DNA of 64,000 nt from NCBI GenBank assembly GCA_964016885.1, contig OZ024760.1:3720001-3784000 (forward strand), in the 5' to 3' direction. A program made the translations under genes and the position numbers. Shown here one piece after another: positions 50,413 to 52,780 of the stretch. The stretch is from Eledone cirrhosa. Its lineage: Eukaryota. The stretch's first letter is position 1, and each line of letters opens with the position of its first letter. A model generated the notes under the pieces. That model did not search any database. It saw only the letters and a list, made by a program, of their open reading frames with translations, and was not told the origin of the DNA.

Positions 50413-52780
50413 TGTGGGTGTTTCACCTTACATTTGTAGACAATGTTACTAGAGAGGCATTTCCCGGATAGGGGGCAATCAACCCGATTCCTACAATTAC
50501 AGTAAGTACTAACTACAGGGTTGCACGTGTTCCTACGGCTAGGTAGTTTAGCTAAATTTGAAGCTGTGATGTTATGTGCAAGGTTAGGAGTCGTAGAGTA
50601 AGAAATTTTAATAGTATTTCTATTAAAAATGTTACTATATTTATGTGTAGGGGAAAATGCTTCGTAATAAGGGAAAGAAAGATCTTAGCTAATGGTGTGG
50701 CCACCTCCATATTATATGGTGGGTTATACCAACAAAAGCGACGGGATCTATTTCTTCTAGGTCTATTTTCGTACTCTGTATATGCACCTTATCGACAAAT
50801 CCACTCCGAGCAAGAGCTTCATTGTAATAAGTGGAATGTCGTTGAAAATATGCTCGTTAGTAGATAGACAGGAAAGCCTCAACGAAACGTTTCTTACCAG
50901 GTTCTTGGTTATGCTGGCAGGATGGTTGGAATGCTTACTTATGTAATTAAGCGTATCATTCGGCTTTCTATACGGGTAATACAACCCATTCAATAAATTG
51001 AGGGTAACGTCGAGGTAATTAACGACCGAGAGATTGGCCTCAACCTGTATAGAGAGGGTGAATCCTTTAAAGAAGGCTGTGAGTTCTTTTCTGAACCTGT
51101 CGCAAGCACGGGGTCCGCACTTAGTCATGGTCAAAAGACCATCATCACGGTACAAACCACCGCCCGCATTGGGGAATTCGTCCTTGATAGAGAAAAGAAG
51201 GAAAAGGCCGATAAGATCAGTAACCTCCGCAGAATCACTGGCGCCCATACTCACGTCGAATGGGGTACTATTGGATTTTTTAATCCAAATAGAGTCGTCG
51301 AAATTAATCACCGACTTACGGGCATTGAGGATGACATAACTTCGAAATCCTTAACCACTGTGAGTGTTTTAGCGAAATTGATAGCTCTAAGGAGAAGTGG
51401 TAAAGTGATGGAGGAGTAGTAATTGTTGATGTCGAATTGGATAAAACGGCAATGTTCCTTGTTACATATGCCGTTGAACCAATCAATCACCGCGAAAGAA
51501 TTGTTCCACAGTGCAAGAGGGGCCAAACTTCTAATTTCAGGTATAATTCTATCAAGAATCCTTTTACTAAGTCTACCTAAATCGGACTTCGTAGGGTTAA
51601 TAAGCCGAATAGAGGGGTTGTTCGGAAAATTGGATTTGTGATCCTTCAGGGTAAAGTGGGGAGAAATAGGGTCCAGAGGTTCAGTCCGGTCCAGGATGTT
51701 GAGATCAGATGTGATTTTAAACCCAGCATCGTTGATTTCATTGATGACACGCCGATTAGTTTTACGGTAATCCTTAGTTACAGCATTATGTAGTAGTTGA
51801 TGGTAAGTACCGCGCTCCACTTGATATAGGTTGCCAGTTTTGTCGGAATGGACGTGCACGGCATTAGAATCCTTAATAGAACGAATTCTATTCTTCAGGT
51901 CCTGCTGGAAGGAATTGCTCCTATTCCGAAATTTGATACTCCGTATGAGTTCCAAGACATCATTTTCGAAGGGTAGCAATGCTGGGTTACACGGGAGGTT
52001 ATTATAGGTTTCAAACCCAAATTTATCCTGTTTGTTGTCTGCTTTTCGCGGATTATCGAAATAAAAGGCACGCCAACGCAACCTTTTAATGAAGGCGTCT
52101 GTTTTCTGTATCAGGAGTTTTAGGTATGTTTTCCTGCTTGGTACGGGTATGTTCTTTGTAGAAATATTCAGATGTTGTTTCTGCATGATGAATATAAGTC
52201 AATAGAGTGCTCAACCGAGGGAGCCAAATAGTAATAATAATAAATTTGAAGACTAAAATCCAAAGAGGGCTCGATAAGGATAAATATATATCAAATATAT
52301 AAGAACCGTAGAGCAAATATTTATTAAAATAACAGATTAAAGTTTAAGCAAAGAATCGCTGCTTTCACCCTTAACGGGATCTTCTGAAACTAACAAAGTC
52401 AATCTGTAAACGCAGAAGTGGATATTTCAAAAAACGTTGCAACTGGAGCAAGGCAGGAAGACGATACTTTGGTTCGTAGAAACGTTCCCTGGCAAAGAAA
52501 AGGAAAAAACGAATATAATACGTCATTAATAGGAGCGGTGAAAAACAATTACGCGCAAAGACAGAACCACGTTTATGGTATAAAAGAGGTCGTAGACTAA
52601 TGTTCTCTGAGGTGGTGCATAGAGACGTTCTCTGGCAATGAACGAAAAAAAAAAAAACGAAGATAATACGTCATATGTGGACCGTGGAGTACAATTGCAC
52701 GCAAAACCACGTAAATGGTATAGCAGAAGTCGTAGACTAAAATTCTAACTAGGAGACCGAATGAATCTCCGCTTCAGAGT
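50409..52780 (-). mobile_element. Hydra-like PLE with intact 5' leader and start (52186), frameshifted RT, 3'-truncated inside the GIY-YIG
   Basis: [65 protein letters not shown] then (TA)n. Confidence 0.92.
52332..52407 (-). ncRNA. Extended type-I HHR with variant core CAGAAGA
   Basis: acagattg-actttgtt-agttt CAGAAGA t ccc-gttaa-ggg t GAAA gca-N9-tgc TT aaact-t-taatctgt. Confidence 0.75.

Follow-up and report, generated by a model that had tools for sequence, protein, structure and literature searches.

A high-copy Penelope-like element (PLE) family in the genome of Eledone cirrhosa carries a type I hammerhead motif in which position 4 of the core is A and not U. The change is a core variant, present throughout the family, of a ribozyme type already known; the family falls in a known clade of elements (the Hydra clade), and the same change recurs in a second lineage. 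We analysed a 64,000-nucleotide stretch of contig OZ024760.1 (positions 3,720,001 to 3,784,000 of assembly GCA_964016885.1; hereafter the window, whose coordinates are used unless another locus is named) together with related copies across the 3.0-Gb source genome. A family of more than 11,000 copies with an altered core, sharing its genome with U4 families that belong to the same clade, amounts to a natural experiment on what hammerheads do for PLEs. If the A4 motif does not cut, cleavage would be dispensable for spread in vivo; if it does, the accepted core consensus would be too narrow and descriptor-based counts too low.

The hammerhead motif

The motif spans 52332-52407 on the minus strand and was recognized from its sequence, its predicted fold and a covariance-model match; we call the family that carries it family A. 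The core, C3-A4-G5-A6-A7-G8-A9 (CAGAAGA), occupies 52380-52386 (minus), with C3 at 52386 and A4 at 52385. On the same strand, the 5' strand of distal stem I (52399-52407) is predicted to pair with 52340-52332 at probabilities of 0.72-1.0 and is separated by a bulge (52398-52392) from the 5' strand of proximal stem I (52387-52391; AGUUU/AAACU), predicted to pair with 52345-52341. Downstream of the core, U10.1, a 3-bp stem II (CCC/GGG), a GUUAA loop and U11.1 are read directly from the sequence at 52367-52379 (minus), followed by G12-A13-A14-A15.1 (GAAA), a 5-bp non-palindromic stem III and a CUU triplet at 52346-52366 (minus). The predicted cut site lies between 52346 and 52345 on that strand.

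Three helices thus surround the core with stem I open, as expected of type I hammerheads, and the core has C3, G5, A6, G8, A9, G12, A13, A14, the A15.1-U16.1 pair and a nucleotide other than G at position 17. Position 4 is A in place of U, and we therefore file the motif as a variant and not as a canonical member; 10.1-11.1 is U-U in place of a purine-pyrimidine combination. A stem I bulge and a loop II are both present and vary among subfamilies, making them a candidate tertiary contact. A4 is also predicted to be able to pair with U11.1 in a competing hairpin that would bury the core.

These observations bear out most of the first-pass annotation, a description made from the window sequence alone. 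Every part that it named was found (all helices, the GUUAA loop, a true hairpin stem III and the CUU triplet). Its bipartite stem I of 5 bp plus 8 bp around an 8-nt bulge was also recovered, with 9 bp around a 7-nt bulge as an alternative for the distal stem. It held that standard CUGANGA descriptors would miss the motif, in line with an Rfam search of 52250-52480 that returned no hammerhead match and with a published Hydra table that was built on CUGANGA. Its U-U at 10.1-11.1 is indeed present but is no oddity: U10.1-U11.1 is the commonest state in the clade (26 of 46 relatives) and a known tolerated state of hammerheads (Perreault 2011, PMC3088659).

The hammerhead fold has a predicted energy of -13.0 kcal/mol, 2.1 kcal/mol above the predicted minimum of -15.1 kcal/mol. 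Proximal stem I has a pairing probability of about 0.08, yet values below 0.10 are also seen in 13 of 25 canonical relatives used as a control, so this folding value says nothing about A4. A covariance model trained on 26 hammerheads of Hydra-type elements, all from other organisms, matched both window copies on the correct (minus) strand at 22.4 bits (E about 0.002). By this sequence score the window motif exceeds chance; the stems of the training set covary strongly, a result that is partly circular because the set was picked by a structural descriptor.

The second copy (29183-29258, minus) ends a 5'-truncated stub of about 280 bp (29460-29183) located in a TA repeat. As had been pointed out in the first pass, the hammerheads are the same: minus-strand 52407-52332 and 29258-29183 agree letter for letter. 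However, 17 of 30 sampled genomic copies show the same 76/76-nt identity, which makes the identity of the two window copies weak evidence on its own.

The host element

The hammerhead belongs to the 3' end, in the form of a pseudo-LTR, of a Hydra-clade PLE. In the window, a Hydra-clade reverse transcriptase (RT) ORF occupies 50414-52186 (minus); it is frameshifted near 51310-51350 and ends before the endonuclease, and is thus a broken copy. Upstream of it, 52187-52331 (minus) holds the element end and the 5' UTR, from hammerhead to ATG, and 52332-53181 (minus) is a part of a 3' UTR that forms the upstream pseudo-LTR, with 88% identity to the 3' UTR of a near-complete copy, L059. In L059, two hammerheads 3,259 bp apart flank an RT plus GIY-YIG frame. 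The last part of the endonuclease lies in a second frame there, and intact 713-amino-acid frames also exist.

The Hydra clade is defined by a set of RWR, DKT, CxCx5C and CxxC/CxH motifs (Craig et al. 2021, PMC8557442). RWR (RWK-type) and SDKTG (for DKT) motifs were found in L059 and in the window ORF, and the L059 translations, inspected by eye, have the CxCx5C linker, a C-terminal GIY-YIG domain and CxxC/CxH around E and N. Pseudo-LTRs, tandem and inverted copies and insertion in TA repeats are likewise present, as expected of this clade. Pfam gave no match in the two pieces of the window ORF, and viral contigs and phage records yielded no related loci. A non-LTR retrozyme was considered and ruled out, the unit being 3,259 bp long with an RT ORF and not a short non-coding tandem.

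The motif lies at the 3' end of the element and is followed by TA repeats or, in tandem copies, by a 5' UTR and ATG. The predicted cut lies 159 nt, and C3 200 nt, upstream of the ATG at 52186. The distance of about 160 nt to the PLE ATG given by the first-pass annotation is therefore accurate, but a placement before the ATG holds only for tandem copies. Spacing from C3 to ATG is 197-200 nt in family A, within the 169-217 nt of 14 relative loci.

Several other features accompany these elements. A GT-AG intron of about 750 nt lies in the 3' UTR (L059:3435-4183; its acceptor end is near window 52490, minus strand); it is precisely absent from 211 genomic copies, with two alternative acceptors spaced 4 nt from each other. 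A tandem duplication of about 140 bp (74% identity; window 52470-52746) lies in the 3' UTR, immediately upstream of the hammerhead. Two related ORFs with PHD-finger matches (28131-29006 and 30560-31405, minus) flank the stub at 29 kb. Canonical-core hammerheads of other families occur at 42385-45133, 59081-59193 and 59641-59685, including a tandem run with a spacing of about 467 bp and a fold-back pair.

A4 is the state of family A

Genomic copies were counted by sequence-pattern searches of the source genome. With position 4 left open, 11,116 matches were found, of which 11,044 have A, 28 have U and 44 have C or G. The first pass had read the A as family consensus and not decay, had proposed a consensus of all copies as a check and had named a majority of CUGAAGA copies as the outcome that would speak against it; the consensus is A4. 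In older subfamilies (712 pattern matches), 17 of the 18 copies whose core is complete have A4, after 11 loci lacking the 5' part and one duplicate were left out. Young and older subfamilies thus agree in having A4 as the family state.

The older subfamilies have shared changes in loops II and III and one shared C-to-U change in stem II. Shared changes are absent from the six core positions left free (G8, A9 and G12-A15.1); G5, A6 and N7 were held fixed by the pattern filter. The contrast between core and loops (0 of 6 versus 5 of 12) is not significant (p=0.11).

A shorter U4 pattern gave 725 matches that could have represented a U4 sister family, and this candidate was rejected, as 28 of 30 examined loci are fold-back junctions at a near-palindrome in the core. 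Roughly 700 fold-back junctions (L139-L168) are centred on this near-palindrome; one of their arms carries a CUGA core of canonical appearance and lacks stem I.

A4 is unusual in the Hydra clade as judged from sequence comparisons. A descriptor allowing one core mismatch, applied to 91 related loci from other organisms, gave 74 canonical matches on the sense strand and four variant matches (some being duplicates or neighbouring elements), and none of the four variants is changed at position 4. U4 is present in all 25 covariance-model matches inspected, three of which are also among the variant matches, and all 26 Hydra rows of a published table begin CUGA (File S2 of PMC8557442). In the source genome itself, the canonical-core pattern has 56,138 matches compared with 391 for a control pattern. 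A literature search, with figures and some supplements outside its scope, found no report of a natural U4A, and an earlier report is possible; nor does one appear in the available text of PMC10085705, PMC13481778, PMC12192606, PMC3923133, PMC7229834 and bioRxiv 2026.07.22.740005.

Other core states were also seen. Further well-formed hammerheads with C4 lie near position 1500 of L576 and of L579 and near 1210 of L319 (minus); one has an 8-bp stem I, one is in a relative of family B and one is a single copy of family D. Family G (L436:230-380, L438:430-560) is young, with identical ORFs, a canonical core and a stem II region of about 110 nt, and its older sister, family F, has a U3-A8 core.

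A second lineage with A4

A scan of the source genome for other A4 cores identified family B, a Hydra-type element with about 44% protein identity to family A. Its hammerhead has G10.1-C11.1, a short palindromic stem III and a GUA triplet, and its stem I is different. A pattern with an open core gave 76 matches (69 A4, 5 C4, 1 U4 and 1 G4); N7 varies, as expected of a hammerhead, and the family includes a C4 branch.

In a tree of 16 RT proteins, built without the published Hydra consensus proteins, family B groups with families F (U3-A8 core, U4) and G (canonical core) with support of 100/99. Families A and B as one clade, a grouping named before the first tree, was rejected (AU p=2.7e-5), and the U4 families F and G fall between them. 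Two changes at position 4 follow, either two gains or a gain and a reversion; the links between hammerhead and ORF families rest on adjacency in single loci.

An apparent third A4 family (1,602 matches) was rejected because it lies antisense to the ORF of another retrotransposon and mostly has GGAA for GAAA. An apparent family with a G5 variant was also rejected, since an ORF of endonuclease type runs antisense to it. In scans for changes at G5 and at G8 and for C4/G4 cores, the first 100 matches listed for each were mostly scattered mutants of known families, and none of the 100 of 7,882 (G5) and 100 of 2,098 (G8) matches listed pointed to a hammerhead family in which a changed G5 or G8 is fixed, the G5 list being dominated by a false-positive repeat.

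In family B, an inserted segment of about 430 bp also separates the RT thumb from the linker (L378:3221-3650). Six families (A, B, C, D, F and G), the UTRs of which otherwise look unlike one another, share a GAGC(A)CTCT-like motif, noted by eye, a short distance before the start codon; it lies at L059:1197-1207 and ahead of the ATG in L318, L344, L378, L412 and L428.

Breakpoints and splice junctions

We used the start points of truncated copies as a genomic proxy for cutting. In family A, 1 of 32 sampled 5' breakpoint rows is exactly at the predicted cut site, compared with 5 of 34 rows, from three independent places, in canonical U4 family C. A peak at the cut site is absent from family A, and none is clear in U4 families C and G, so this comparison does not tell the two cores apart. 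Family A copies do have an accumulation of 5' breakpoints where the motif begins on its 5' side (7,757 pattern matches): of 36 sampled rows, 29 have their break 0-10 nt upstream of G5, and the remaining 7 represent a variant in bulge length. This pile-up, within about 10 nt upstream of G5 (window 52380-52397; L475-L504), lies in or beside proximal stem I. Thousands of copies therefore run through the cut site, so the template RNA was uncut, or rejoined, there. Transcription starting here, or reverse transcription stalling at the hairpin, would each explain the pile-up. The sequence at this place resembles an initiator motif, and the 5' edge of the hammerhead may be where transcription starts.

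Junctions of the 3' UTR splice donor to the core CAG or to a nearby UAG were found in no genomic copy (one donor tested), compared with 211 copies in which this donor is joined to acceptors about 100 nt upstream, which served as the control.

What A4 may mean

Of the readings considered, we rank as most likely an attenuated but tolerated ribozyme, which would fold and cut slowly or only with the protein of the element; we put this at about an even chance, ahead of a dead relic, then a fully compensated enzyme and then a splice signal. U4 contacts the A6-N7 phosphate (PMC3088659), and its replacement by A would remove this contact and lower the rate. Weak cutting would cost little and the loss would be tolerated, because the RNA that serves for new copies would still contain the whole motif; the remaining core would stay under some constraint. 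Fixation of A4 in family A, its presence in the older subfamilies and the restriction of their shared changes to loops and stem II are consistent with attenuation, as are the A4 of the separate family B, its C4 branch and the lack of a G5- or G8-fixed family among the matches listed. Position 4 also seems tolerant elsewhere: a viroid naturally carries U4C, which is much less active in vitro, and is still infectious (PMC3088659), and 0 of 50 phage escape clones had a U4 change (PMC4075628). A PLE hammerhead from Anolis cut only with protein, and its mutants did not affect insertion in vitro (PMC11167929); the many copies that extend through the cut site to the motif edge fit the same reading. 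Against it count the non-significant core-loop contrast, obtained with G5, A6 and N7 fixed by the filter, the finding of A4 in only two lineages, and pairwise mutagenesis of another hammerhead in which single and double CUGA mutants had low activity, except for a C3-G8 swap (PMC9901934). Naiad elements, moreover, do well with no canonical hammerhead (PMC8557442), so that a dead motif might simply travel with its element.

The same mutagenesis data and the same Anolis mutants would also suit a ribozyme knocked out by A4 in an amplified master copy, with its fold kept by descent or as a protein signal. The single cut-site breakpoint among the sampled rows and the predicted core-burying A4-U11.1 hairpin point the same way. 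We nevertheless consider this somewhat unlikely, since canonical family C also lacks a clear cut-site peak, a second lineage also departs from U at position 4, with a further change there to C, while the matches listed show no G5 or G8 fixation, and, more weakly, the rest of the core is unchanged through several subfamilies. Were the bulged stem I, GUUAA loop and long stem III instead to compensate fully, the monomer would cut at a near-normal rate. The strongly predicted distal stem, a stem III that is longer than the short, often palindromic one of relatives, and the proposal that tertiary contacts offset core variants (Perreault 2011, PMC3088659) favour such compensation. It is made quite improbable by a loop II and bulge that differ between subfamilies, by family B, where A4 occurs together with a short palindromic stem III and an unlike stem I, and by the many copies that begin 0-10 nt upstream of G5 and hence lack the distal stem. 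Finally, A4 might have been selected for a 3' splice site (UUUCAG) in the core that removes the 5' half of the ribozyme. A pyrimidine run ending in CAG is found at the core in both A4 families, and an intron of Drosophila virilis Penelope ends at helix I (PMC4209133), but the complete lack of junctions from the one donor tested to the core, set against 211 from the same donor further upstream, renders this highly improbable.

A bolder proposal is that A4 is a working core that had two origins among the Hydra-clade elements of a single genome, was rescued by the periphery or by protein, and was kept because tuned-down cutting helps the element. We regard this as unlikely; if true, surveys based on CUGANGA would overlook whole high-copy ribozyme families.

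Comparison with known hammerheads

Like the family A motif, the Poseidon hammerhead from Anolis (Frangieh et al. 2024, PMC11167929) sits at the junction of pseudo-LTR and ORF in an endonuclease-bearing element, with uncut RNA as the template. That element belongs to another clade, its activity was measured, and its available description reports no position-4 change. The minimal and U3-A8 hammerheads of PLEs (Cervera and De la Pena 2014, PMC4209133), a group for which low activity was reported, are also pseudo-LTR core variants that escape the standard descriptor. U3-A8 is a compensated pair swap, whereas A4 has no evident compensating change. The viroid U4C variant (PMC3088659) similarly combines a natural substitution at position 4 with an otherwise intact core; family A differs in having a purine and not a pyrimidine, fixed in more than 11,000 genomic copies and known from sequence. 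The Hydra-clade hammerheads of Craig et al. 2021 (PMC8557442) share with family A the type I topology and the position at the 3' end; they too target TA repeats, often have U10.1-U11.1, use NUU triplets and belong to elements with the same protein motifs. All 26 in the published table begin CUGA, in contrast to family A, with its A4, a G-C pair at 15.2-16.2 and a 5-bp, non-palindromic stem III.
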